Part shown: positions 7,296 through 34,397 of the stretch, one piece after another
Layout: each line of letters starts with the position of its first letter
Position numbering within the stretch: position 1 is the first letter of the stretch
NCBI GenBank assembly: GCA_031371545.1
Contig: JANMJU010000026.1
Span: 1,337-65,336, forward strand
Source of the DNA: Chitinophagaceae bacterium
GTDB taxonomy: Bacteria > Bacteroidota > Bacteroidia > Chitinophagales > Chitinophagaceae
Reading direction: 5' to 3'
DNA length: 64,000 nt
Position numbers and translations under genes: made by a program
The notes under the pieces: generated by a model
Seen by the model: only the letters and a program-made list of their open reading frames with translations
What the model was told of the DNA's origin: nothing
Databases searched by the model: none

Positions 7296-8447
7296 TCATT
7301 TTTTTATTGAATTATTTTTAGAGATAATGATGTTGTTATTTTTTATGCTGTAAGAAAACCTTGTCGTTAGCTCCAATGCATTTAAAGCTTCCCTTACTGT
7401 TTCTTTCTCAAAACTTCCTGTTAGAGATGCTTTTTTTAATGCCCCATCAGCAAATTCAATATTTACACTGTACCAGCGCTCCATCTTTAAGGCAACATCT
7501 TCGAAGGTTTCGCTGCTAAAGATTAAACGATTTTGTACCCAGGCTGTTTCTATTAAAGTGTTATCGGCAGGGTAAAAAGTCAGGTGACTAAGGGATATGA
7601 TTGGCTTTTCATCCGTCGCTTTGGGCAAAAGTGGCCGAATAGAAGTTTGTTGTGTGCTTTTTACTACTGGTGCTTCCTGGTTATTAATGATCAGTTTTTC
7701 ATTTGGCTTCAGCATTATTTTTTCCTGGCGGTCTTTTAAAGTTACTTCAATGCTGCCCCTGATTAAACTGGTCTCGGTAGTTTTTTCGCCTGGGTAACAT
7801 TTTACATTGAATGCTGTACCCAATACTTTAATATCCATTTTAGTGGTATGAATTAAAAATGGTTTCTCTGCATTTTTAACCACATCAAAATAAGCTTCCC
7901 CCACCAGGTTTACTTCTCTGAGTTTGTTTCCATAATTTTTTTCGTAGGTTAACTGGCTGCTTGAATTGAGCCAAACCTTGGTTCCGTCAGGAAGTACCAG
8001 GTTAGTTTTAGAGCCATTTTTTGTATTGATTTCATTTTTAGAATGAACTTCTGCAAGGTCTTTTGAAGGAGCTTTTTTATTTCTATAGAAAAAAATACCG
8101 CCGGTAATAAGCGCCAGTGTGGCAAATGAACAAAGAGCTATCAGCCATTTTCTTCCGCCACCTTTTTTCTCCTCTTGTTCCCGATTAATATAATGATCGT
8201 CCTGGGTAAATTTCCCTTCATCAATACCCATGGTTTTCATTTGCTGCACCAGTTCTTTATACCTGTTTTCGGCATATTGGCTGTCTGGAATGGGATTGTT
8301 TTGCCACAGGTCGTGCAATATCTCTTTGGAGTAATTAATATGTGGATCCAGTCTCACAAGGCGATCCAGTTCAGATAACTCTTCGGGAGAAGCTTCTCCC
8401 GAAAGCTTCCTTGCCATTAATACCCATATTTGTTCTGAGTTATCCAA
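7296..8447 (-). CDS. FecR family anti-sigma factor
   Basis: 383 aa with a single TM (WLIALCSFATLALITGGIFFY). FecR-type periplasmic domain (LPDGTKVWLNSSSQLTY, GEAYFDV). Lies between the ECF sigma gene and the STN-bearing SusC. Confidence 0.85.
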   Translation of the reverse strand: MDNSEQIWVLMARKLSGEASPEELSELDRLVRLDPHINYSKEILHDLWQNNPIPDSQYAENRYKELVQQMKTMGIDEGKFTQDDHYINREQEEKKGGGRKWLIALCSFATLALITGGIFFYRNKKAPSKDLAEVHSKNEINTKNGSKTNLVLPDGTKVWLNSSSQLTYEKNYGNKLREVNLVGEAYFDVVKNAEKPFLIHTTKMDIKVLGTAFNVKCYPGEKTTETSLIRGSIEVTLKDRQEKIMLKPNEKLIINNQEAPVVKSTQQTSIRPLLPKATDEKPIISLSHLTFYPADNTLIETAWVQNRLIFSSETFEDVALKMERWYSVNIEFADGALKKASLTGSFEKETVREALNALELTTRFSYSIKNNNIIISKNNSIKK

Positions 8448-8539
8448 TATTATTGTTATGTAAAGTAATTAGACACCATTATCCTCTAAATCTACCAAAG
8501 GCAAAAAAAATATTTTTAAAAGAATGGAGTAAGGATGAA

Positions 8540-9109
8540 TTACTTATGTTCCTTTTTTAGATCAAAATTGATGGCGCTGCTGATTTTTTTTAAAGCAATG
8601 GCCATTTGATTGTCGATGGTTTTCACAGAAATGTTCAGCAGCCGGGCAATATCATTGTATCGCAGCCTGTCTTCTTTTACCAGTTTAAAAATCAGCTTAC
8701 ACCTGGGAGGCAGTTTTTGAATTTCATGGTTTATTTTCTTTACCGCCTCCGAGGTAATCAGTAATTGCTCGGGGTTGTAAGGCCCCATTGGAATATTTAT
8801 GGACATCTCTTCAAGAGAAATGATATTCTTTCTAAAATGCCGGGATAAATAATTAAGTGCGGTGTTTTTGGTACTTACATAGAGGTAAAGCTTGAAATTG
8901 TCAATCTTTCCAATCTCTGCCCTGTTTTGCCATATTTTGATAAATACATCCAAAACAATCTCTTCTGCAAGTTCATTGTTCTTAATAATTGAATTGGCAA
9001 ACTTCAGCAAATAAGGCATGTAAGCAATATACATTTGGGCATAAGCATGCTGATCGCCATATTGACTAATTTTTAATTGTAGCTCTTTGACTTCCTGTGG
9101 AGTAATCAT
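8540..9109 (-). CDS. ECF (sigma-70 family) RNA polymerase sigma factor
   Basis: 189 aa. Region 2 (EEIVLDVFIKIWQNR) and region 4 HTH (YNDIARLLNISVKTIDNQMAIALKK). Upstream of FecR. Confidence 0.88.
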   Translation of the reverse strand: MITPQEVKELQLKISQYGDQHAYAQMYIAYMPYLLKFANSIIKNNELAEEIVLDVFIKIWQNRAEIGKIDNFKLYLYVSTKNTALNYLSRHFRKNIISLEEMSINIPMGPYNPEQLLITSEAVKKINHEIQKLPPRCKLIFKLVKEDRLRYNDIARLLNISVKTIDNQMAIALKKISSAINFDLKKEHK

Positions 9110-9454
9110 ATAGCAGTTTCGGTATTAATGCAATCGTTTGGTGTTGATGCAATTTAATAAAAACTATTTTCTATTTTACAAACTATTTATAAATATTTAT
9201 GCTTATAAATTGGTATTTGTAAAATCACGCTATTTTAATAAAGCAATGTTGAAGAAAACAAAAATCTCTTTACTGCAGATTATTTTATAAAAACATCTTT
9301 ATCAATTATTGATTTTACTTACTTTTGCAATCCTTTATCAGGTTTCGGTTTACAGGTTTATTCCGAAATTTATTTAAGTGGATTAAAAAATCAAATAACC
9401 CAGCTGCTTTTTTATAAGCAGTTGTACCAATAAAAATCTTTCTTGAAAAAGAAA

Positions 9455-9531
9455 GGGCCTATAGCTCAGTTGGTTAGAGCACCTGACTCATAATCAGGTG
9501 GTCCCTGGTTCGAGCCCAGGTGGGCCCACCA
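9455..9531 (+). tRNA. tRNA with CAT anticodon (elongator Met or lysidine-modified Ile2), CCA encoded
   Basis: GGGCCTA acceptor arm pairs with TGGGCCC. D-arm AGCTCAGTTGGTTAGAGC, anticodon stem CCTGA/TCAGG with loop CTCATAA, and T-arm GGTTCGAGCCC. C4:G69 and C5:G68 resemble E. coli tRNA-Ile2, but identity is not settled. Confidence 0.93.
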
Positions 9532-9540
9532 AACAAAACT

Positions 9541-9567
9541 TGCCCGAAATATTTCGGGCAGTTTTTT
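9541..9567 (+). terminator. Intrinsic terminator after the tRNA
   Basis: Perfect 20-nt palindrome TGCCCGAAATATTTCGGGCA followed by GTTTTTT. Confidence 0.8.
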
Positions 9568-9631
9568 ATATGTTCATTTAACCTTTCATTAACCCCGATG
9601 GCGGGTATTTTTGTTACTCAAGATTACATTT

Positions 9632-10354
9632 ATGAAGAAAATCGTTTTTACCTTATTTGCCTTTAGCTCTTTTTTAATCTCTGCTGCCCAAACAACCAAG
9701 AAAGACTGGAAAAAAACAACTTTAGAACAACCCGGCGATCATATTATGCTTCAATTAACCAGCGACCACTGGGCTGGTGCTCCAGATAGCATTACTAACA
9801 GAATGGCTGGCTTATCAAGAGGGCTGGGTATATCTATTATGCTTAACAAGCCTTTTAAGACAGACCCTCACTGGGCTGTGGCTTTTGGTTTGGGTATAAA
9901 TGGAAGCAGTATGTTTTTTAAGAATACAGACATTGGTATTACTTCAACAGGAACCGTACTTCCTTTTAAAAATGCAGACTCTACCGACCATTTTAAAAAA
10001 TATAAATTAGTTACTGTATTTGCCGAAGTCCCTGTTGAGTTGCGATATACTTTTAACCCAGAAAAAGAAAATAAAAGCTGGAAGGCCGCCCTTGGACTAA
10101 AAATAGGTACTATGATAAATGCCCACACAAAAGGAAAGACTTTGCAAAACAGCAGTGGGACCACCATTAATTCTTACACTTTAAAAGAAAGTAAAAAAAC
10201 ATTTTTTAATGGCACTCGTGTAGTAGCAACAGCAAGGGTAGGAGTAGGTGCTTTTTCTTTAGTTGGAACATACCAACTTTCTACATTATTAAAAGATGGC
10301 GCCGGTGCAGATATCAGACCTTACCAAATTGGGATTTGCATCAGCGGTTTATAG
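9632..10354 (+). CDS. Outer-membrane beta-barrel (OMP_b-brl_2 / PorT-like) protein
   Basis: Signal peptide MKKIVFTLFAFSSFLISAAQ and alternating beta-strand pattern. The track ORF starts at TTG 9611; ATG 9632 is more plausible. Confidence 0.6.
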   Translation: MKKIVFTLFAFSSFLISAAQTTKKDWKKTTLEQPGDHIMLQLTSDHWAGAPDSITNRMAGLSRGLGISIMLNKPFKTDPHWAVAFGLGINGSSMFFKNTDIGITSTGTVLPFKNADSTDHFKKYKLVTVFAEVPVELRYTFNPEKENKSWKAALGLKIGTMINAHTKGKTLQNSSGTTINSYTLKESKKTFFNGTRVVATARVGVGAFSLVGTYQLSTLLKDGAGADIRPYQIGICISGL

Positions 10355-10440
10355 TTAACCAAAATTATATTTCATCCCTCCGCTATTCAACGGAGGGATT
10401 TTTGTTTTACATCAGTTAACTTTACCACTCATTTCACATC

Positions 10441-12288
10441 ATGAGCGACGAAATTAAACACGAATGTGGCCTCGCCTTCATTCGCCTTCGCAAAAACTTC
10501 AGTTATTATCAGCAGCAATACGGCTCTGTACTCTACGGCCTCAACAAGTTATACTTATTGATGGAAAAGCAACACAACCGTGGACAAGACGGAGCAGGTA
10601 TCGCTACCATTAAACTAAATGTAGAACCCGGTTATCCTTTTCTGCACCGCTTGCGAAGCAGTGCCAACCAGCCTATTGCCGATCTCTTTTTTCAAATTGG
10701 CAAAGAGATTGAAGAAATAGAAAAATACCAGCCGGACATTAAGAACCACCCGGGGTTAATGAAAGGCCATATCAACTACCTGGGCGAATTATTACTGGGT
10801 CATTTGCGCTATGGAACACAGGGAAAAAATAACGTGGAATTTTGCCACCCCTTTATTAAAAGAGATATCATACCGGCAAGAAATCTTGCACTCGCCGGTA
10901 ATTTTAATTTAGTAAATACGGAAGAGTTATTTGGCCTGGTCAATATGGAACCGGGTGTGTTTCAAAAACAAAGCGACCTGGCAGCGATGATGGAAGTACT
11001 GCATCATTTTTTGGTAAAAGCAGATGAGGCTTTTCCCGAAAATTTAGATGTTGCCAAAGTGCTTAAAAAAGCAGTGCCCCTTTTTGATGGTGGTTTTAAT
11101 TTTTGTGGTTTGATAGGCAACGGAAATGCATTTGTAATGAGGGATGCACATGGTATACGTCCGTCTTACTATTATATAAATGATGATGTAATTGTGGCTG
11201 CAAGCGAAAGGGCTGCCATCAGGACAGCATTCAATGTGGGGGAAAATGAAGTGCAGGAACTGATGCCGGGCTGTGCACTGATTGTAAATGCAGATGGCAA
11301 TTACAGTATTCAGCAAATTGTGGAACCAAAAGAAAGAAGAGCATGTAGTTTTGAACGGATTTATTTCAGCCGTGGCAGTGATGAAAAAATTTATAAAGAA
11401 AGAACCGCTTTGGGTTATTACCTGAGTGAACCGGTTTTGAAAGCCATTAATCATGATCTGAAGAATACAATTTTTTCTTTTATTCCCAATACGGCTGAAA
11501 CTGCTTTTTATGGCTTGCTGAAAGGGGCTGAAGATTATTTAACTAAAGTAAAAATTGAAAAAATATCAAGCTGGGGAAATGATTATGATGAAGCCAAACT
11601 AACAGAAATGGTGAGCCGTAAAGTGAGGATAGAAAAAATAGCCATCAAAGATGTTAAGCTGCGGACCTTTATTACAGAAGATACCAACCGCAATGAAATG
11701 GTGCAGCATGTGTATGATATTACTTACGGCACTGTGAGGGATCATGTTGATACGCTGGTGGTAATTGATGACTCCATTGTAAGGGGAACTACTTTGAAAG
11801 AAAGTATTATCCGGATGCTGGCAAGATTAAAACCAAAACGAATCATTGTTGTTTCTTCGGCTCCGCAAATACGTTATCCTGATTGTTATGGTATTGATAT
11901 GAGCAAGCTGGGAGACTTTATTGCTTTTAGGGCGGTTATTGATTTGCTGCATGAAACTAACCAGGAAGTATTGCTGGATGATTTATTAGTTTTGTGCAAA
12001 GAGCTGCAACGCAACAACCAGCTGCATACTGAAAACGTGGTAAGAAAAGTGTACAAACCTTTTACACTGGAACAGATCTCAAATAAAATAGCGCAACTCA
12101 TTACACCAAAAGAAATCAACATCCCGGTGGATGTGATTTATCAGACAATTGATACTTTACATTTAGCCTGCCCTACAAATACCGGCGATTGGTATTTTAC
12201 AGGAAATTACCCTACACCGGGCGGCAACAGGGTTTGCAACAAAGCATTTATGAATTATATGGAAGGAAAAAATGTGAGAGGATATTAA
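10441..12288 (+). CDS. purF: Amidophosphoribosyltransferase (long Bacteroidota form)
   Basis: 615 aa. N-terminal HECGLAF class-II glutamine amidotransferase Cys, plus PRPP-binding loop VVIDDSIVRGTT. Confidence 0.85.
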   Translation: MSDEIKHECGLAFIRLRKNFSYYQQQYGSVLYGLNKLYLLMEKQHNRGQDGAGIATIKLNVEPGYPFLHRLRSSANQPIADLFFQIGKEIEEIEKYQPDIKNHPGLMKGHINYLGELLLGHLRYGTQGKNNVEFCHPFIKRDIIPARNLALAGNFNLVNTEELFGLVNMEPGVFQKQSDLAAMMEVLHHFLVKADEAFPENLDVAKVLKKAVPLFDGGFNFCGLIGNGNAFVMRDAHGIRPSYYYINDDVIVAASERAAIRTAFNVGENEVQELMPGCALIVNADGNYSIQQIVEPKERRACSFERIYFSRGSDEKIYKERTALGYYLSEPVLKAINHDLKNTIFSFIPNTAETAFYGLLKGAEDYLTKVKIEKISSWGNDYDEAKLTEMVSRKVRIEKIAIKDVKLRTFITEDTNRNEMVQHVYDITYGTVRDHVDTLVVIDDSIVRGTTLKESIIRMLARLKPKRIIVVSSAPQIRYPDCYGIDMSKLGDFIAFRAVIDLLHETNQEVLLDDLLVLCKELQRNNQLHTENVVRKVYKPFTLEQISNKIAQLITPKEINIPVDVIYQTIDTLHLACPTNTGDWYFTGNYPTPGGNRVCNKAFMNYMEGKNVRGY

Positions 12289-26387: not shown

Positions 26388-26933
26388 TTAATCTTCCTTA
26401 CTTCCTTTATCTCCTACAAACCATTGCTCTTTATTTTTAAACAATACATTAAAAGTAGTGAGAGATCCATAACAACGGGTGATGTACTGCTGTATGTTTA
26501 CCTTGTCTTCATCACTCAGTTTTTTATTGCTGTTGATATTTTGTTCCAGCACCCTCAGCCTGTCTCTCAGCATTACTACCTTATGGAAAAAATCTTCGAT
26601 AGGAATTTCTTTTGGTTTTTGAGTTTTATCGTAAGGTTGTAATAATAAAGACCCTCCTTTCCACTTGTCTCCCAAGGACACCACTTCCGAAAAGCCGGAC
26701 CATAAACGTAAAATTTTCAGCAATGACTTTTCCGTCTCTGAAACTGTTTCTATTTCTGCACTCACATTTTCTGGTATGATCTCATCGAGGCTGGTATCCG
26801 TTTTTTCTACTTCCTTTATACCATGATGAATAAAAGAGATCAGGTAAGTGGCGTATCGTATCCCCACTATTACCCCGGGGCCAAATTGTGTATGCTGCAG
26901 GCGGGTGCCAATTCCTAATGTAGTTTGTTCCAT
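26388..26933 (-). CDS. Hypothetical protein (181 aa)
   Basis: Long intact ORF; no motif recognised. Divergent from the NusG-paralog gene. Confidence 0.45.
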   Translation of the reverse strand: MEQTTLGIGTRLQHTQFGPGVIVGIRYATYLISFIHHGIKEVEKTDTSLDEIIPENVSAEIETVSETEKSLLKILRLWSGFSEVVSLGDKWKGGSLLLQPYDKTQKPKEIPIEDFFHKVVMLRDRLRVLEQNINSNKKLSDEDKVNIQQYITRCYGSLTTFNVLFKNKEQWFVGDKGSKED

Positions 26934-27177
26934 AAAATTATTTTTTCAAAAATAGAGTTTTTAGAAAAATGTTATGCCAGCTCAATTTAAAAGCGCCTGT
27001 AAAAATTATTTTTTTTCTATCAATTAATTCGTATGTTTGTGTTCCTACTATTTAATCCCGTTCCGGATATCCTTTTAAAAGCGCAACCAATCTTCTTCCT
27101 CATTTTCCTTTCGAAAAGCATTACACGTCTGATTGATATTTGAAAAACTGCAGTTTTTTCAACCAAAATTTTACACC

Positions 27178-27729
27178 ATGACACATAATTGGTATGCAGT
27201 TTATACAAAGCCATTAAAAGAAAGAAAAGTTTCTTCCATGCTTAATAAAAAGGGAATTGAAAGCTATTGCCCCGTCATTAGCTCCTGGGCAACAAAATCA
27301 AATAACAGGAAGCCTGTTTTTGAAACACTTTTTAATTCGTATGTATTTGTATACGTGGCAGAATCTGTAGTTGCATCTCTCCGGTTCATTCCCGGTGTCA
27401 TAAATGTTATTTACTGGAAAGCAAAGCCGGCCATAATAAATAAAGAGGAAATTGATATTGTTAAGCAATTAACAGCAAATTATAGCAATATAAGATTGGA
27501 AAAGTCTTTTGTTGATGTTGGCGGAACGGTAAAAGTGATTGATGAACCGGCAATTGCCTATAATGAAAATACAGTTTCAGTAAAATATAATACAGTTAAG
27601 GTTAATCTTCCTTCTCTTGGATTTACTATGATAGCTGAAAGGATGAAAAAGAAAGAAGAGTTGGTATTTGAAGAACGAAATACCCTTACTTCCTTTCCTC
27701 AAAAATTAAATGCATTGTTGTTTAATTAA
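27178..27729 (+). CDS. UpxY-type NusG paralog (NGN-domain transcription antiterminator)
   Basis: MTHNWYAVYTKPLKERKVSSMLNKKGIESYCPV is the NGN-domain opening seen in UpxY/RfaH-like proteins. It is not in a secE-nusG-rplK context, so it is not the housekeeping NusG. ATG 27178 is preferred over the track start 27133. Confidence 0.7.
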   Translation: MTHNWYAVYTKPLKERKVSSMLNKKGIESYCPVISSWATKSNNRKPVFETLFNSYVFVYVAESVVASLRFIPGVINVIYWKAKPAIINKEEIDIVKQLTANYSNIRLEKSFVDVGGTVKVIDEPAIAYNENTVSVKYNTVKVNLPSLGFTMIAERMKKKEELVFEERNTLTSFPQKLNALLFN

Positions 27730-28067
27730 AATAGAAAACTTATTAAAAATCAATTGTCCCGTTTTAAAATCATTGTTCTGGTATCAGACAAATATCCTGA
27801 TTGTTTTTAAATGTTCTATCAAACAAAAAATAGAACATCAAATAAATACCCGTGTAATCTTGCCTTAAACCAGGTAAAATTTTATACGTACCAATCCTTT
27901 GAACCACTCTTTTTAAAGACGCAATTCTCTGCAATATCTTATGCTTAAAAGCAATTGCTTTATAAAATTTTATCGGTAACACTTGTTGTTTTTATGATCC
28001 CCGTAACTACAAAACCAAAAGCTGATAAGATTTTAAAAGACATTTTTTATCACCGTAAAATACCTGT

Positions 28068-28346
28068 ATGGAAAAGATTTACCAATCGTACACAAAAACA
28101 ATACAAAATACTACCTACTATTTTGTAAAAAAATTCATGGTTTTCCCCGAACTCAAGGATCTACCACCAATTCTAGAAAGCTATGGTATGCACACCAACT
28201 TTGATAGATGCTGCGTAATTGCAGGGATTGAGGAAGATGTTGTAAAAAAACAACTCTTAGATGAAATGCATAGAAATGCTCACCAAGCAAAAGTGATTGA
28301 TTTAAGGGATATCAATTTTTTGAATCCGAAAGCCGCAAACCTGTAA
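28068..28346 (+). CDS. Hypothetical protein (92 aa) downstream of the NusG paralog
   Basis: Intact ORF on the same strand as its neighbours; no motif recognised. Confidence 0.4.
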   Translation: MEKIYQSYTKTIQNTTYYFVKKFMVFPELKDLPPILESYGMHTNFDRCCVIAGIEEDVVKKQLLDEMHRNAHQAKVIDLRDINFLNPKAANL

Positions 28347-29018
28347 TTAAAATCTTAGAGGGCAACAATACTCTGTACTACAGCAAAATTATATCGAAAC
28401 ATTTTCGATAATACAAAACAATAGACATCACTAATCATCTTTTTTAAACCTGACTAATGTTTAAAAAGCATACCCTTTCAATAAAGATAAATCTTCTTAA
28501 AAATGTATATTTTTTTATTTTGTCCTTAGGAAGCAATGAAGTTTTTCAGGCGATTAAACTCTTTTGTTGAGCTTGAAACAAAAAAACTTCCGCAAAAGGC
28601 AGAAAACGACTTTGCCAGGTAGGCAAAGAAACGTTGGTTAACAGTATTGTTTGTCATAATATTGGAATTTGAAAGTAAAATTAAATAATTGTGATTTTTT
28701 ATACAAGAGTGATTTTGCTAATTTTTTTGTACCGTATTTTCCGCAGTTTTTCATCTGTTCCAAGAACAACCCTCTGACGGATTTTTAATTACCCATCTGT
28801 TTTGACTTCCTTTTCCTCTCTTTTGTACACATTTTTGCAGGTAATTGGTATTTGTTAGATTTTATAAGTCATAAAGTTTTTTTATTATTAAACGCTTTTA
28901 TACTTTTACTTTAATCAATTTTTTGAAGCCTGTTTTTTAGAAACTCAGAATTATTTGCTTTTATATTATTGGTCAAACAACAATCAACCGTTAATAAATC
29001 CAGCATCATTTTTTATCT

Positions 29019-30188
29019 ATGCCAGATTTTCTTACCTCTTTAAATACATTGTCTGATCTTCCTTTTAAAGTGTGGGTACTGGTTCCTTCTGTGAAAAGCA
29101 ATGATGAAAATTTGGACTACTATTATGATTTCTCTCAAAGTATTTTAGAGTACACTAAAACTTTTGAAGTACTTAATTTACACTGGCAATGGCAACCAGT
29201 AACAATCCATGACTATAAGGAGATCATCAATACCATTCTTGAAGAAAAAAAATTAAAACAATTTTTTCCAATTGTATTCAATATTTGCGATGGTGATGAA
29301 ATAAATGGTGCCCCCGGTATATCAGTGGTAGAGTTATTACAAGAAAAAGGATTGATATATTCCGGTGCTGACAGTTTTTTTTATAACATCACCACTTCTA
29401 AAATCGCAATGAAAAAAGCTTTTGATAAAGCCGACATACCTACGCCTGAATGGGAGGCCATTCATAACAAAGACCATAACGTACAGGGAATTTTTGAAAG
29501 GCTGGGTACTCCAATAATTTTAAAGCCATCGGTATCTGGCGGAAGCATGGGGGTGGGTACAAAAAATGTAGTGTACAATGAGGGTGAATTAAAATCACTC
29601 ATCAATAATTTGTTTACCGGTTATCATGGATGGAACTTGGTGTCTGATGGCTTGATAGCTGAGTCGTTTATCCGGGGTGCAGAATATACTTGTCTGATTG
29701 TTGGTGATCATAACAAATCAGATGTGGCCTTTATTTATGATCCGGTTGAAAGAGTTTTTCATAAATCACTTCCCGAGGATGAAAAATTTTTAAGTTTCGA
29801 CCGATTATGGGAAATTTATGAAGATGAAACTGAAATGCCCAATGAAGAAAATTTTTATGAATATGGCCAGGTGGATTCTTCACGTGTAGATGTGGTAAAA
29901 CAAATTAGTTGGGATGCTTACAGCTCTCTAAAAGGAACTGGATATACAAGGGTGGATATAAGGAGAGATGACCGCACTGGCAAAATGTATGTACTGGAAG
30001 TAAATGCCCAATGTGGTATCAGCGAAAACGAGGATTATACTTCTATTGGAGCTATATTAAGATATAGTAAAAAAACATTTACAGAATTGGTGAAAGAAAT
30101 AATTATAAATGCTATTACTAGAAATAAAAATTCAATCTCCAAAGAAAAAAAAGTAAGCAGTTTAATACATGAGCCCAATCCAAAATAA
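29019..30188 (+). CDS. ATP-grasp ligase, D-Ala-D-Ala-ligase (Ddl) family-like
   Basis: Ddl-type N-terminal motif FPIVFNICDGDEINGAPGISVVELLQEKGLIYSG. ATP-grasp core ILKPSVSGGSMGV, AESFIRGAEYTCLIVG and YVLEVNAQCG. 389 aa. Confidence 0.8.
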   Translation: MPDFLTSLNTLSDLPFKVWVLVPSVKSNDENLDYYYDFSQSILEYTKTFEVLNLHWQWQPVTIHDYKEIINTILEEKKLKQFFPIVFNICDGDEINGAPGISVVELLQEKGLIYSGADSFFYNITTSKIAMKKAFDKADIPTPEWEAIHNKDHNVQGIFERLGTPIILKPSVSGGSMGVGTKNVVYNEGELKSLINNLFTGYHGWNLVSDGLIAESFIRGAEYTCLIVGDHNKSDVAFIYDPVERVFHKSLPEDEKFLSFDRLWEIYEDETEMPNEENFYEYGQVDSSRVDVVKQISWDAYSSLKGTGYTRVDIRRDDRTGKMYVLEVNAQCGISENEDYTSIGAILRYSKKTFTELVKEIIINAITRNKNSISKEKKVSSLIHEPNPK

Positions 30189-31671
30189 TGACAGTTTTTC
30201 TGCTATAACTATAGAATCTGCTGCTTCGCATAATTGGAGTACACTAAAAATATGTGTGCTGCTTCCCGATTATTCAACATCCGATGTTGACTACCAGTTG
30301 TATGATCCGCCAAGGAATTTATCTCACCTTATTCCAGAAGCATATTTTGAACATGTTTTTCTGAATAAATTGAGTACTTACAAACAGTTAAAAGAATTAA
30401 AGAAAAAGCAATTCGACATATTTGTAAATCTATGTGAGGGCTATCTTGAATGGGCAGTTCCTTCTATTGATGTTATCTATACATTGGAGATACTCAACCT
30501 GCCATTTACCGGCCCCACAACTCTGTTATATGATCCACCAAAAGAACTGATGAAATATGTGGCATACACTGAAGGTGTTAGAACTCCTGCTTATACCCTT
30601 ATAGAAAATGAAGAAAATATTGAATCTGAATGCAAGCTGCTACAATATCCATTGTTTGTAAAACCTCATAAAGCGGGGGATAGCCTGGGAGTGGATGAGA
30701 AAAGTCTGGTAAATAACCTTTTTGAATTAAAGGAAAAAATACGTTCTGTTATTGATGAATACAGTCCTTTGCTTGTAGAAGAGTATATCGAGGGAAGGGA
30801 GTTTACGATAATGCTTGCTGCTGACGCCGGTAATAAATCTGTGACAACCTTCCGGCCTGTTGAGTATATTTTTCCTGAAGGAAACCAGTTTAAAACTTAT
30901 GCACTGAAAACTTCAGAACTTCATCCAAACGCAAATATTCCTGTTATGGATGAGCAACTTAATAAAAGATTAAAAACTGCAGCCACAAAAATATTCACCG
31001 CATTTAAAGGGGCTGGTTATGCCCGTTTAGACTTCAGAATGAATGCTGAAGGAGAGCTATTTTTTCTTGAAATAAACTTTACATGTTCTGTATTCTATAC
31101 TAAAGGTTATGAAGGAAGTGCAGATTATATACTACAGCATGATGGATTTGGGCAGGCAAATTTTTTAAAAAATATTATTGCTGAGGGTATTGAAAGATAT
31201 CGCCTAATGCAAAAAAAATATTTTATGAAGGGTAATTCAATAGCTGGTTATGGCATTTATGCCACCAATAATATTGCAGCTAATGAATTGATATTCAAAG
31301 GAGAGGAAATGGCTCAGCGGATAGTTACCAAGAGTCATGTGGAGAAAAACTGGGATGATAACCAAAAAGAAATATTTAGAAAATACGCTTATCCTCTAAG
31401 CAAAGAGGTATTTTTGCTGTGGGATAACAATCCGTATGAATGGGCTCCACAAAATCATAGTTGTTCGCCAAATACGGCATTTGATGGTTTAAATATAAAA
31501 GCTATAGGCTACATTAAAAATGGCGATGAATTAACTTTAGATTATGCGTCTTTTTTGGATGAAAATATGGAGCCTTTTAAATGCAAATGTGGCTCTCCCA
31601 ACTGTCGTGGCTTAATTACCGGAATTACTAACAACTCGGTAACCGAAAGAGAAAAAGAAGCCACTACTTAA
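30169..31671 (+). CDS. Fusion protein: Ddl-type ATP-grasp ligase plus C-terminal SET-domain methyltransferase
   Basis: ATP-grasp part: FVKPHKAGDSLGV, VEEYIEGREFTIML, FFLEINFTCS. SET part from about nt 31201: GYGIYAT, NHSCSPN (31453-31473), ELTLDY and post-SET CKCGSPNCRG (31582-31611). Overlaps the upstream ligase gene by 20 nt. Confidence 0.82.
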   Translation: MSPIQNNDSFSAITIESAASHNWSTLKICVLLPDYSTSDVDYQLYDPPRNLSHLIPEAYFEHVFLNKLSTYKQLKELKKKQFDIFVNLCEGYLEWAVPSIDVIYTLEILNLPFTGPTTLLYDPPKELMKYVAYTEGVRTPAYTLIENEENIESECKLLQYPLFVKPHKAGDSLGVDEKSLVNNLFELKEKIRSVIDEYSPLLVEEYIEGREFTIMLAADAGNKSVTTFRPVEYIFPEGNQFKTYALKTSELHPNANIPVMDEQLNKRLKTAATKIFTAFKGAGYARLDFRMNAEGELFFLEINFTCSVFYTKGYEGSADYILQHDGFGQANFLKNIIAEGIERYRLMQKKYFMKGNSIAGYGIYATNNIAANELIFKGEEMAQRIVTKSHVEKNWDDNQKEIFRKYAYPLSKEVFLLWDNNPYEWAPQNHSCSPNTAFDGLNIKAIGYIKNGDELTLDYASFLDENMEPFKCKCGSPNCRGLITGITNNSVTEREKEATT

Positions 31672-31776
31672 ACTAACCCAACGTCTTTCGGTCTAACTAC
31701 TCCATTAAATGATTGGCTTACCGGTTTATCCGGGATAGAAATTGTATGATTTATTAAATGATTCAAAAGAAGATTT

Positions 31777-32718
31777 ATGTCAAGATTTAATGTACTACGA
31801 ACATTGATAGTAAAACATAAGTATCAATTAAGTTTTACCTATTTTTTATTTACGCTGGAAACGATGGGCAGCTTGATGCGATTTTATTTTTTCGGGGAGG
31901 CTATCAATGATTTAATAAAAGGCAGCTATCATGGATTAATTGTACTAACCATAGCGCATATAATTTATTTAATTGTTGGTACAGCGAGGCATATTTATGA
32001 CACCAGAACATATACAGCTATTTACACCTCTTTAGTAACAAAACTTTTAAGCAGGCGTTTTGAAAAAATTGAATTGTCCAAGCTGAGTGCTCACTCTACA
32101 TTGGCAAGGGAATTCATTGATTTTTTAGAACACGACCTGGTGTATGTAATAGAAGCAACTTATAATTTGTTGGGCTCTTTAATTATTCTTTTTTTCTATG
32201 ATAAAATGATTGTTGGTATCTGTTTAGCTATTTTGGCACCCGTGCTGTTGGTGAGTTATTGGTATGGTAAAAAGATGAATAAGCTCAACAAGCAAAAAAA
32301 TGATGAATTAGAAAAGCAGGTTGATGTTATTGGTACGGGCAATAAAAAAATGATTTATCAGCATTACAACAATTTAAGAAACTGGCAAATAAAAATTTCT
32401 AATAAAGAAGCTTTCAATTTCGGTTTTATGGAAGTAATGGTATTACTTGTAATTACAGTTTCTTTAGTATTATCTAAAAGCATGCACAATCCTGCATTGC
32501 TTGCTGGCAGCCTGTTTGGTATTTACAGTTACATTCTAAAATTTGCCAGTGGTCTTGATACAATTCCTTATACAATACAACGACTTTCTTCATTAAATGA
32601 TATTTCAAGAAGAATTGAGATACAGAAGGAAGACATACCAAAAGAAAAGAAGAAGGGAGAGATTAGCGTACACCCTTATAGTATTATTTCAGCGAAAGAA
32701 ATTAAAATATCTGCGTAA
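31777..32718 (+). CDS. ABC-exporter-type six-helix transmembrane domain protein lacking a nucleotide-binding domain
   Basis: 313 aa with type-I ABC exporter TMD architecture: two clusters of long helices separated by a charged intracellular loop (KKMNKLNKQKNDELEKQVD). It ends where an NBD would start. No Walker A, signature motif or NBD ORF follows. Confidence 0.6.
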   Translation: MSRFNVLRTLIVKHKYQLSFTYFLFTLETMGSLMRFYFFGEAINDLIKGSYHGLIVLTIAHIIYLIVGTARHIYDTRTYTAIYTSLVTKLLSRRFEKIELSKLSAHSTLAREFIDFLEHDLVYVIEATYNLLGSLIILFFYDKMIVGICLAILAPVLLVSYWYGKKMNKLNKQKNDELEKQVDVIGTGNKKMIYQHYNNLRNWQIKISNKEAFNFGFMEVMVLLVITVSLVLSKSMHNPALLAGSLFGIYSYILKFASGLDTIPYTIQRLSSLNDISRRIEIQKEDIPKEKKKGEISVHPYSIISAKEIKISA

Positions 32719-33002
32719 ACTAATTGTATTATTAATTAAGCTTGTCCCAATTAAATATTTTCTTTATATCTATAACAACAATATTTCTCTATTTCCTTTG
32801 GTGTACCAACCTGCAAAAAAGTACTAATTACCGATCATCCCAACAATTTACCATCTACAAAATCAGCAATTTTTGTTTTATTGATAGCTAATTTTTGTAA
32901 AACCCAATACCGGCAAGGTTTTTACTCAAAACAAAGTTAACAAACACTGCCTATTACCATTATTAAATTAGTACTTTGTTTCGCATAGTACTAATTATTT
33001 TA

Positions 33003-33010
33003 TATCTTTG
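33003..33010 (+). promoter_or_regulatory. Bacteroidota -7 promoter element (TAnnTTTG) for the micro-protein genes
   Basis: TATCTTTG lies 42 nt upstream of ATG 33052, directly after an 8-bp inverted repeat. Confidence 0.45.
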
Positions 33011-33051
33011 TTTTATCAAAGTAATAAATACAATAATTAAAACTTACAATC

Positions 33052-33240
33052 ATGAAAAAGACATTAAACAGCTCATTTGTCCATTTAACTCAAAATGAGC
33101 TTAAAAATTTAACAAGCGAAGTAAAAGAAACTATTGCTGTAGCGTTTTTCCGCAAACCAGAAAACAAGATTTTTACTGCGGCCAATCTTTGGAATATACA
33201 ACGGCAGACTAAAACAAGAATGCAAAGAAGGTTTATTTAA
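33052..33240 (+). CDS. 62-aa basic micro-protein, paralog 1 (candidate precursor/substrate peptide)
   Basis: MKKTLNSSFVHLTQNELKNLTSEVKETIAVAFFRKPENKIFTAANLWNIQRQTKTRMQRRFI. Paralogous to the next ORF: 29 identical positions in my hand alignment. Confidence 0.6.
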   Translation: MKKTLNSSFVHLTQNELKNLTSEVKETIAVAFFRKPENKIFTAANLWNIQRQTKTRMQRRFI

Positions 33241-33269
33241 AAACATTATCAATCTAAAAACTTATAATC

Positions 33270-33455
33270 ATGAAAAAGACAACTAATTGCATATTTGCTA
33301 AACTTAGCAGCAGCCAAATAGAAAACTTAACCAATGTAGTTAAAGAAACGATTGCTTTTGAAACTGGTATAGCAGCAATCAAAACATTTACCTCTGCAGA
33401 CTTGCGAAATATTCAAAAGCAGTCAAGGGGCAGATGGCAAAGGAAATTTTTTTAA
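33270..33455 (+). CDS. 61-aa basic micro-protein, paralog 2 (candidate precursor/substrate peptide)
   Basis: MKKTTNCIFAKLSSSQIENLTNVVKETIAFETGIAAIKTFTSADLRNIQKQSRGRWQRKFF. The translation-initiation context is duplicated (AAAACTTATAATCATGAAAAAGACA versus AAAACTTACAATCATGAAAAAGACA). Confidence 0.6.
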   Translation: MKKTTNCIFAKLSSSQIENLTNVVKETIAFETGIAAIKTFTSADLRNIQKQSRGRWQRKFF

Positions 33456-33485
33456 AGGCAGGAAATAAAAAAAAATTGACACATT

Positions 33486-33866
33486 TTATGAGCGATAAAA
33501 CTCCTCCAACATTCCAAAATAATTGTGATTCCAGCCTTCTGTCATGTTTATGTATTCTTCATCCGGGATATTGGTATGTGTTAGTTCAACGGAGGTTCCG
33601 TGTTTATGTGGATGTAATTTGATTGTTACAATGGAGGCTTCTTCCTGATCACCAAAATACCACTCTTGAACAATCATTTTACCAGTTTCAAAAGCCAAAT
33701 TTCTTCCAGAAATGCTACCTTCCCATAATGAGAATTCGCTGCCAATCTCTGTACTCATTTCAGCAGGATCACCGCTCCAGAGTTGAATTGTAGCCGGATT
33801 AGTTAATGCAATAAAAATATCTTCGGGGCTTGCCGGGATGATATAATATTTTTTAAAGTCCTTCAT
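33486..33866 (-). CDS. SRPBCC superfamily (AHSA1/START-like) protein
   Basis: 126 aa. PEDIFIALTNPATIQLWSG and VELTHTNIPDE are typical of Aha1-domain proteins. Confidence 0.65.
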   Translation of the reverse strand: MKDFKKYYIIPASPEDIFIALTNPATIQLWSGDPAEMSTEIGSEFSLWEGSISGRNLAFETGKMIVQEWYFGDQEEASIVTIKLHPHKHGTSVELTHTNIPDEEYINMTEGWNHNYFGMLEEFYRS

Positions 33867-33881
33867 TTTTAGGTGATATAT

Positions 33882-34397
33882 TTATCTGCCAAAATCATCT
33901 TGTATTCTTACAATATCATCTTCATTGCTGGGATTATCTGTATCGGTGTGCTGCCATATTTCAGCCACAATACCCCAACCGTCTAAACCAATGAGCCGGT
34001 GCCGTTCCCCCTGTTTCAACTGTATGATATCTCCAATTGACAAATGGTTTGTATTCTCCTCAACATCCGTATCACTTGTTACTACTCCAGCCGTGCCTCC
34101 AATAAGTTTCCATATTTCTGCACGCCGGTGATGATACTGCCAGCTTAATCTTTTATTAGGTCCAACAATCAATACCTTGGGGCTTAATTTACCAGATATT
34201 ATTAGTTTTTCTTTTGTGATGTGTGGGAAATACAGTGAAATAAATCTTTCAGCCTGCGATTCATCTAAAACAAAAAACCCCCCCCAAGGCCTTGTGTCAT
34301 CCTGCTGATTTACATTTAATTGCTGTTGATTTAGGTACTCTTCAACCTTTTCAAAAACCAATACTTTTGGGGTATCCTCTGAAAAATTTAAAGTCAT
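33882..34397 (-). CDS. Cupin domain protein (type II phosphomannose-isomerase C-terminal-like)
   Basis: RPWGGFFVL, SWQYHHRRAEIW and GERHRL cupin motifs. Confidence 0.7.
   Translation of the reverse strand: MTLNFSEDTPKVLVFEKVEEYLNQQQLNVNQQDDTRPWGGFFVLDESQAERFISLYFPHITKEKLIISGKLSPKVLIVGPNKRLSWQYHHRRAEIWKLIGGTAGVVTSDTDVEENTNHLSIGDIIQLKQGERHRLIGLDGWGIVAEIWQHTDTDNPSNEDDIVRIQDDFGR

Follow-up and report, generated by a model that had tools for sequence, protein, structure and literature searches.

An unannotated ATP-grasp–SET module and an adjacent family of small basic proteins in a Chitinophagaceae genome

Ligases of the Ddl/Van type act on small substrates. For BurB from Burkholderia, a SET enzyme of 172 amino acids (aa), it was shown that free methionine is converted to S-methylmethionine (PMC12542666), and the eukaryotic protein TTLL12 combines SET-like and TTL ATP-grasp domains in one polypeptide (PMC3520985). 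A literature search for the family in which ATP-grasp and one or two SET domains are fused (AG-SET and AG-SET-SET) surfaced only jumonji comparative-genomics and TTLL12 papers and no functional study of the family. Herein, a locus encoding such a fusion is described from a stretch of 64,000 nucleotides (nt) of a Chitinophagaceae bacterium (assembly GCA_031371545.1, contig JANMJU010000026.1, positions 1,337 to 65,336), hereafter called the window. The locus is best explained as two neighboring units, namely the genes of two ATP-grasp proteins (AG1 and AG2-SET) together with that of a six-transmembrane (six-TM) protein and, downstream, an array of two small genes (pepA and pepB). Both the AG-SET(-SET) module and the family of the small proteins are real, and neither is annotated. 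The features of the locus are as follows:

27032–27039, plus strand: promoter-like element TATGTTTG upstream of the UpxY-like gene, TAnnTTTG, Bacteroidota −7-type
27178–27729, plus strand: NusG paralog, UpxY-like, with an NGN domain
28068–28346, plus strand: orf92, 92 aa, conserved and without a family
28526–28657, minus strand: micro-ORF of 43 aa, conserved, inside the supposed leader, with two terminator-like hairpins
29019–30188, plus strand: AG1, Ddl-fold ATP-grasp ligase, the SET-less paralog of AG2
30169–31671, plus strand: AG2-SET, Ddl-fold ATP-grasp domain and canonical SET domain with post-SET zinc motif
31777–32718, plus strand: six-TM ABC-type membrane protein without nucleotide-binding domain (NBD), PF13748
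33003–33010, plus strand: promoter-like element TATCTTTG upstream of pepA, TAnnTTTG
33052–33240, plus strand: pepA, 62 aa, member of a clade-specific family of tandem small basic proteins
33270–33455, plus strand: pepB, 61 aa, paralog of pepA

All open reading frame (ORF) coordinates of the original prediction, which had been made from the DNA sequence of the window, proved correct, and profile searches recovered the NusG NGN domain, Dala_Dala_lig_C in both ligases, SET, and ABC_membrane_3. The nearest genome locus is that of a Chitinophagaceae metagenome-assembled genome (L001), the AG2-SET of which is 93% identical to that of the window. It was compared together with 30 further species-level loci, mostly from Ferruginibacter; the source of the window is itself Ferruginibacter-like. 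The gene content of all fetched loci was determined by tblastn with the window proteins and by a hidden Markov model of the small ORFs.

AG1 and AG2 are paralogs with 25% identity (E 1e-20), and their genes overlap by the 20 nt noted originally. Both match Dala_Dala_lig_C, with E 9e-17 for AG1 and 1.6e-23 for AG2. The designation of the two as Ddl-type ligases holds for domain and fold, but both miss the family cut-offs of Ddl itself: The NCBIfam Ddl models yield 88.8 and 83.7 bits for AG1 and 93.9 and 85.2 bits for AG2, compared with cut-offs of 243–246. A Pfam match to RimK (E 0.006) lies below threshold. The RxD and ExN Mg-ATP motifs are readable in both proteins; AG1 bears the family N-terminal motif NxCDG, and its best PDB matches are Ddl. 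In AG2-SET, the ATP-grasp domain spans approximately residues 26–345 and the SET domain approximately residues 350–490, and the two domains are placed rigidly to each other in a confident AlphaFold2 model (predicted local distance difference test, pLDDT, 90.7; predicted template-modeling score, pTM, 0.88). A Foldseek search with this model returned exclusively Ddl/Van ligases among the top 50 PDB matches, with template-modeling scores (TMt) of 0.64–0.81; RimK, LysX, TTL, or a graspetide cyclase are absent from these 50. AG1 is located immediately 5′ of AG2-SET in locus L044, a distant one described below, and in every Chitinophagaceae locus with enough upstream sequence. A metagenomic protein of 838 aa, P0100, covers AG2-SET at 66% identity and may be either an AG1-AG2-SET fusion or the product of a frameshift merging both genes.

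The C-terminal SET fusion of AG2 was borne out by Pfam with E 6e-9 over residues 360–459 and 36.7 bits against a gathering score of 22.4. Three motifs are found in it: NHSC (PQNHSCSPN), ELTLDY, and the post-SET CxCx4C (CKCGSPNC). Among 51 diverse AG-SET members, K165, E204/E205, K247, R286, D288, and N303 of the ATP-grasp domain are at least 90% conserved, as are H430, C432, C472, C474, and C479 of the SET domain. Because the catalytic, NHSC, and zinc-binding cysteine residues are conserved to this extent, both activities are probably retained. The best PDB match of the fused SET domain is BurB (9l4t, E 3e-9). BurB is likewise the nearest solved relative (E 1.8e-11) of a separate SET protein of 165 aa, SET165, that is encoded directly 5′ of AG1 in most loci (L003–L030, L032, L033, and L041; e.g., L011 6253–6750); the matches to BurB span only ~60–85 residues. 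The gene of SET165 has been lost from the window and from L001, L019, and L037.

The six-TM protein matches PF13748 (ABC_membrane_3) with E 1.2e-42 and 146.4 bits, compared with a cut-off of 27, and contains no NBD. It had been read as an ATP-binding cassette (ABC) membrane domain that stops where the NBD should begin; the missing NBD stands, the truncation does not. All PF13748 homologs of 300–320 aa are devoid of an NBD, meaning that its absence is the normal state of this family. Such proteins are encoded standalone in Cronobacter, Priestia, and Fulvitalea, beside TetR, MerR, or AraC regulators. In the loci compared here, the six-TM gene lies 3′ of AG2-SET in approximately 24 cases, and its product is the probable exporter or permease of the module.

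The conserved unit is SET165 (where present), AG1, AG2-SET, and the six-TM protein, with the AG1-AG2SET pair occurring in all fetched loci. The complete order SET165-AG1-AG2SET-6TM is intact in 20/20 loci of a Ferruginibacter clade that has no pepA/pepB-like genes. A search with AG2-SET among 1.84 billion representative proteins yielded 236 clusters at E ≤ 1e-30, many of them being full-length ATP-grasp plus SET proteins with 30–48% identity. Eukaryotic homologs occur in Vermamoeba and Mesostigma and include a 6220-aa protein; an AG-SET contig with BTB and Kelch neighbors looks amoebal. A plasmid search with AG2-SET found only SET-less ATP-grasp proteins with 25–31% identity.

In distant bacteria, AG-SET-SET fusions are found, such as P0365 (647 aa, L042 10001–11944) and P0538 (674 aa, L047 8001–10025). 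Their extra C-terminal SET domain resembles SET165, which ties SET165 functionally to AG2-SET. Locus L044 (48% identity) shows the order SET165, ABC membrane protein, AG1, and AG2SET, followed by Glyoxalase_3 and DAO, and its organism is probably from another phylum, judging by the high G+C content. L045/L046 contain a row consisting of a large ABC fusion protein, AG-SET, AlaDh_PNT, a 136-aa SET protein, AdoMet_dc, and DUF3326 (L045 6650–14572). In L047, the AG-SET-SET gene faces an AdoMet_dc gene (8001–10848), and in L042, a Tara Oceans contig, it stands alone, as AG-SET(-SET) also does in eukaryotes. Neighbors of the distant AG-SET genes thus comprise AdoMet_dc twice, AlaDh_PNT, DAO, a weak Arg-decarboxylase-like match, and ABC transporter genes, and those in L045 and L047 hint at polyamine or sulfonium-amine chemistry. 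Taken together, these contexts suggest the metabolism of amines or amino acids and not precursor peptides. ORFs like pepA or pepB are not found in these distant loci. A route in which SET165 forms S-methylmethionine, followed by an AdoMet_dc-like decarboxylation, would rest solely on the neighbors in two distant loci and is not claimed.

The second unit consists of pepA and pepB, which are paralogs, as had been proposed, with 48% identity (E 3e-15). A profile of 11 copies recovers at least 1272 clusters, nearly all of 61–62 aa; the small ORFs, hence, do have homologs. None of these clusters has a Pfam domain, and the few with an organism-type source name stem from Ferruginibacter or soil metagenome. 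The consensus reads MKKxSxxLFxxxSxxQxENLTxxVKETLA…KxFTAADLWNIQRQGKxRxQRRFSF, herein M1, K2, T21, E26, F41, L46, I49, Q50, and R59 are invariant and T27 is nearly so. The AlphaFold2 model shows two helices but is too weak for a fold search (pLDDT 68, pTM 0.27), and the profile matches nothing in the PDB below E 0.8. Compared with the orthologs in L001, pepA is 92% identical with four synonymous and five nonsynonymous codon changes, and pepB is 87% identical with seven synonymous and eight nonsynonymous changes.

Seen from the ligases, the peptides are rare. In a sample of one genome per species with at least 2.5 kb of downstream sequence, 22 loci have no peptides and three have them. In a neighbor-joining tree of AG2SET, all peptide-bearing loci group in a single clade, to which the majority of the peptide-less loci is sister, the others branching at the base. 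The slot that harbors the array, which has one to four tandem copies, sits in a conserved backbone of SSB, PIF1, AHSA1, and MnmG. Since the peptide-bearing loci are one AG2SET clade within this backbone, the linkage is as expected from a single insertion followed by vertical inheritance. The segment between ligases and peptides varies: It holds the six-TM gene, nothing, or opposite-strand genes, namely cupin and amylase genes or the gene of a 790-aa SprB/CHU_C protein. Such opposite-strand genes part the ligases from the peptides in L011, L035, and L037. Directly after the array, there follow a convergent methyltransferase gene and then SSB and the PIF1 helicase, an arrangement not seen in the window or L001:

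Class I S-adenosylmethionine (SAM) methyltransferase, minus strand: L011 13109–14017, L019 10924–11829, L032 10715–11623, L033 10884–11792, L037 10639–11544, and L041 10222–11121

This methyltransferase has ~300 aa, belongs to Methyltransf_23, and starts with a Cys-rich segment. In peptide-less loci, it is absent too and other genes fill the slot; it may be the real partner of the peptides. Within the peptide clade, SET165 or the six-TM protein is often lost and AG1-AG2SET is kept, with the six-TM gene missing from at least four peptide-bearing loci. Relaxed constraint could account for this erosion, as could a change of function. In the same clade, an ATE_C-domain protein, a relative of arginyl-/leucyl-tRNA protein transferases, is encoded 5′ of orf92 in L011 (1625–2686), L019 (4030–5070), L037 (1602–2642), and L035 (1–279). 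The window was scanned for remnants of SET165, QSregVF_b, the class I methyltransferase, SSB, PIF1, and ATE_C, and no traces were found; therefore, these genes are truly absent there.

The reading we prefer, and to which we assign about an even chance, is that the enzymes and the six-TM protein form an autonomous pathway whose product, a small ligated and methylated molecule, is exported, with the peptide array being a separate, vertically inherited neighbor. It builds on the structural relatives of the enzymes, their transporter partners, the amine and amino-acid genes at distant loci, and the stand-alone occurrence of the module. The domain identities, the fold, the conserved catalytic residues, the phyletic distribution, and the fusions are shown; we infer a small-molecule substrate, export by the membrane protein, and regulation of the operon by the UpxY-like protein. 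Using ATP, each Ddl-fold ligase would first form an acyl-phosphate and then join small substrates, either amino acids or amines, by an amide bond. SAM-dependent methylation of substrate or product would fall to the fused SET domain and, where present, to SET165, and the NBD-less six-TM protein would carry the product across the membrane. The UpxY-like paralog, presumably acquired upstream in this lineage, may keep transcription going through the long leader. Several features set the peptides apart: a TAnnTTTG element of their own, the restriction to a single clade, opposite-strand genes that can part them from the ligases, and covariation with the class I methyltransferase. Accounting for them, the array would be transcribed separately, encode clade-specific two-helix basic proteins, and have been inserted once into the syntenic slot, together with a class I methyltransferase since lost in the window.

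Several observations weigh against this assignment. The window locus itself has no amine- or amino-acid-supplying genes, and the contexts of distant homologs were sampled at only five places. Both SET domains also match histone lysine methyltransferases (KMTs), with E 1e-5 to 1e-6. The peptide array is located 0.5–3.0 kb 3′ of AG1-AG2SET in 8/8 independent contexts with upstream sequence (the window, L001, L011/L035, L019, L032, L033, L037, and L041), and among the examined contexts, which rest on six look-ups of encoding contigs, no array was found elsewhere than beside the ligase pair. Furthermore, that the module erodes among the peptide-bearing loci could mean a shift of function toward the peptides.

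These last points bear most directly on the original prediction of a locus for a ribosomally synthesized and post-translationally modified peptide (RiPP), in which pepA and pepB would be substrates that are extended or cross-linked by the ligases and methylated by the SET domain, with the six-TM protein serving export or immunity. Part of it stands: The domain calls are right, the small genes do have homologs, and their position downstream of the ligases recurs in all eight contexts, so that the refuting outcomes named along with the prediction did not arise. The co-occurrence of peptides and ligases, however, holds from the side of the peptides and fails from that of the ligases, since the module is peptide-less in 22/25 informative species loci and in all distant taxa; it is far older and broader than the peptides, the origin of which was a single event inside a conserved backbone. 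Tandem paralogs that diversify, as found here, are what one typically sees with precursor peptides, and pepA and pepB evolve faster than their neighbors, with 87–92% identity to L001 compared with 93–97% for AG2-SET and the six-TM protein. The constant position 3′ of the ligases fits as well, and the erosion of the module could mark neofunctionalization. Yet opposite-strand genes can lie between ligases and peptides, the six-TM protein is missing from at least four peptide-bearing loci, and the ligases are of the Ddl fold and not of the MvdC/MvdD or RimK type. The peptides themselves offer possible ligase sites in the invariant T21 and E26 and the nearly invariant T27. Apart from T21 and E26, the invariant positions are mostly hydrophobic, or Q50 and R59, which resembles the pattern of two helices folded together; neither a repeated core motif nor a layout of conserved leader and variable core is seen. 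The peptides speak against the proposed methylation of Lys/Arg-rich tails by the SET domain, given that none of their internal Lys residues is invariant and that K can replace R, and R can replace K, in the tail. Hence, the specific RiPP claim is weak, and we regard it as unlikely.

Equally unlikely appears a modification of protein tails in the manner of RimK or TTLL12, in which a conserved cellular protein would receive amino acids from the ligases and methyl groups on its lysines from the SET domain. This is in line with the canonical lysine-methyltransferase motifs of the SET domains and with the histone KMT matches mentioned above; TTLL12 also joins SET-like and TTL ATP-grasp domains (PMC3520985), and the occurrence in bacteria and eukaryotes would suit a universal protein substrate. 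However, the ATP-grasp domains are of the closed Ddl type and not that of RimK, LysX, or TTL, with RimK remaining below threshold in Pfam; the transporter in the operon and the ABC partners in L044 and L045 suit an exported small product better, and no conserved candidate gene for the substrate was found in the neighborhoods.

A somewhat less probable reading is that an ancestral small-molecule module was recruited in one Ferruginibacter clade to modify the tandem 61–62-aa proteins. In its favor, the array is always 3′ of the ligases, and the clade in which SET165 and the six-TM protein erode is this very one; if true, a new RiPP-like class would be given, based on Ddl-fold ATP-grasp ligases plus a SET methyltransferase. 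Finally, cell-wall Ddl paralogs making an alternative peptidoglycan dipeptide or depsipeptide are very improbable, for although Ddl/Van ligases rank first by sequence and by fold, the scores of 84–94 bits lie far from the cut-offs of 243–246, the N-terminal substrate motif differs (NxCDG/NLCEG), and a SET fusion, eukaryotic members, and neighborhoods devoid of any mur or van gene do not fit.

Upstream of the ligases, the UpxY-like protein has the predicted NGN domain (Pfam NusG, E 2.3e-15; 57.3 bits against a cut-off of 22.2), but its best NCBIfam match, UpxY (NF033644), stays at 84.7 bits under the curated cut-off of 100. Among ~45 loci, its gene is confined to the window and the closest relative L001; it is lineage specific and lies outside the conserved module. 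Homologs of orf92 with 48–56% identity are located 5′ of the ligase operon in nine loci (L002, L008, L011, L019, L020, L023, L033, L035, and L037), and no family in Pfam, NCBIfam, PHROGs, or PADLOC matches it. The interval of 672 bp that follows, described earlier as a noncoding leader, is present, but its noncoding nature is doubtful. It holds a block of ~220 nt (28525–28745) that is 76% identical to L002 over 223 nt, the remaining leader being unalignable. On the minus strand of this block lie the 43-aa ORF MTNNTVNQRFFAYLAKSFSAFCGSFFVSSSTKEFNRLKNFIAS (28526–28657), for which L001 and L002 show conservation, as well as two terminator-like hairpins (28628–28610 and 28605–28587) with a T-run after them. 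With this conserved block, the minus-strand ORF, and the hairpins, the leader may be neither empty nor purely plus-strand. A structured RNA is unsupported for the block (fold z-score −0.69), which has no match in Rfam; within 26500–34000, no Rfam family is found at E ≤ 1. The sole Rfam family match in the 64-kb window is a tRNA gene at 9455–9528 on the plus strand.

As for promoters, a sigma-70 scan showed no enrichment (25 found vs 28.7 expected), its model being unsuited to Bacteroidota, and TAnnTTTG was taken as the motif instead. The element at 27032 is the sole plus-strand occurrence 5′ of AG1, with the next ones at 31409, within AG2-SET, and 33003; directly 5′ of AG1, the plus strand of the locus has none. 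That pepA and pepB have an element of their own was rightly predicted: TATCTTTG at 33003–33010 precedes the pepA ATG by 42 nt. In the whole window, the motif is depleted, with 63 occurrences on both strands compared with 105 ± 11 in dinucleotide-preserving shuffles. Neither PADLOC nor PHROGs gives a match for any protein of the locus; therefore, a known defense or phage system is ruled out.

The AG-SET family comprises hundreds of diverged representative clusters from several bacterial lineages and eukaryotes. To our knowledge, no solved SET enzyme other than BurB has a free amino acid as its substrate. Hence, the module is a candidate for a second and much wider class of small-molecule SET methyltransferases, one whose methyltransferase shares a polypeptide with an amide-forming ligase and an operon with a transporter. 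As its product, a methylated compound that has so far escaped recognition is conceivable, perhaps a quaternary ammonium or sulfonium. Furthermore, the module is relevant to the origin of eukaryotic proteins with SET and ATP-grasp domains such as TTLL12, and the 61–62-aa proteins are a separate, well-defined, and fully unannotated family open to expression studies.

Compared with known systems, the ligases are closest to Ddl/Van, with which they share the three-domain fold (TMt 0.64–0.81) and the RxD and ExN motifs; the same chemistry is expected, meaning an acyl-phosphate followed by an amide bond between small substrates. They differ by an identity of ~20%, scores below cut-off, another N-terminal substrate motif, the fusion to SET, a position outside any cell-wall context, and eukaryotic members. 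As BurB shows, a free amino acid can serve as the substrate of a small SET protein that bears a post-SET CxCx4C motif; as far as PMC12542666 states, its gene is neither fused to nor beside that of an ATP-grasp ligase, whereas the SET domain of AG2-SET is fused. TTLL12 can be likened to AG2-SET by domain content but has the opposite domain order and a TTL-type instead of a Ddl-type ATP-grasp domain. Graspetide and microviridin clusters (MvdC/MvdD) likewise have an ATP-grasp gene near tandem small ORFs and a transporter gene. Their macrocyclases are, however, related to RimK, and their core motif of Thr/Ser/Lys plus Asp/Glu is not clearly recognizable in the peptides described here, without which the enzymes are widespread. 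The locus thus departs from graspetide systems in two defining features, the type of ligase and the obligate co-occurrence with a precursor. With UpxY, RfaH, and LoaP, the locus has in common that an NGN protein is encoded at the front, with a long leader and an operon behind it; in contrast to them, the protein scores under the UpxY cut-off, occurs in the window and L001 only, has no identified ops-like element, and precedes a locus that is not one for polysaccharide. Thus, known catalytic folds are present here in an uncharacterized and widely distributed combination.

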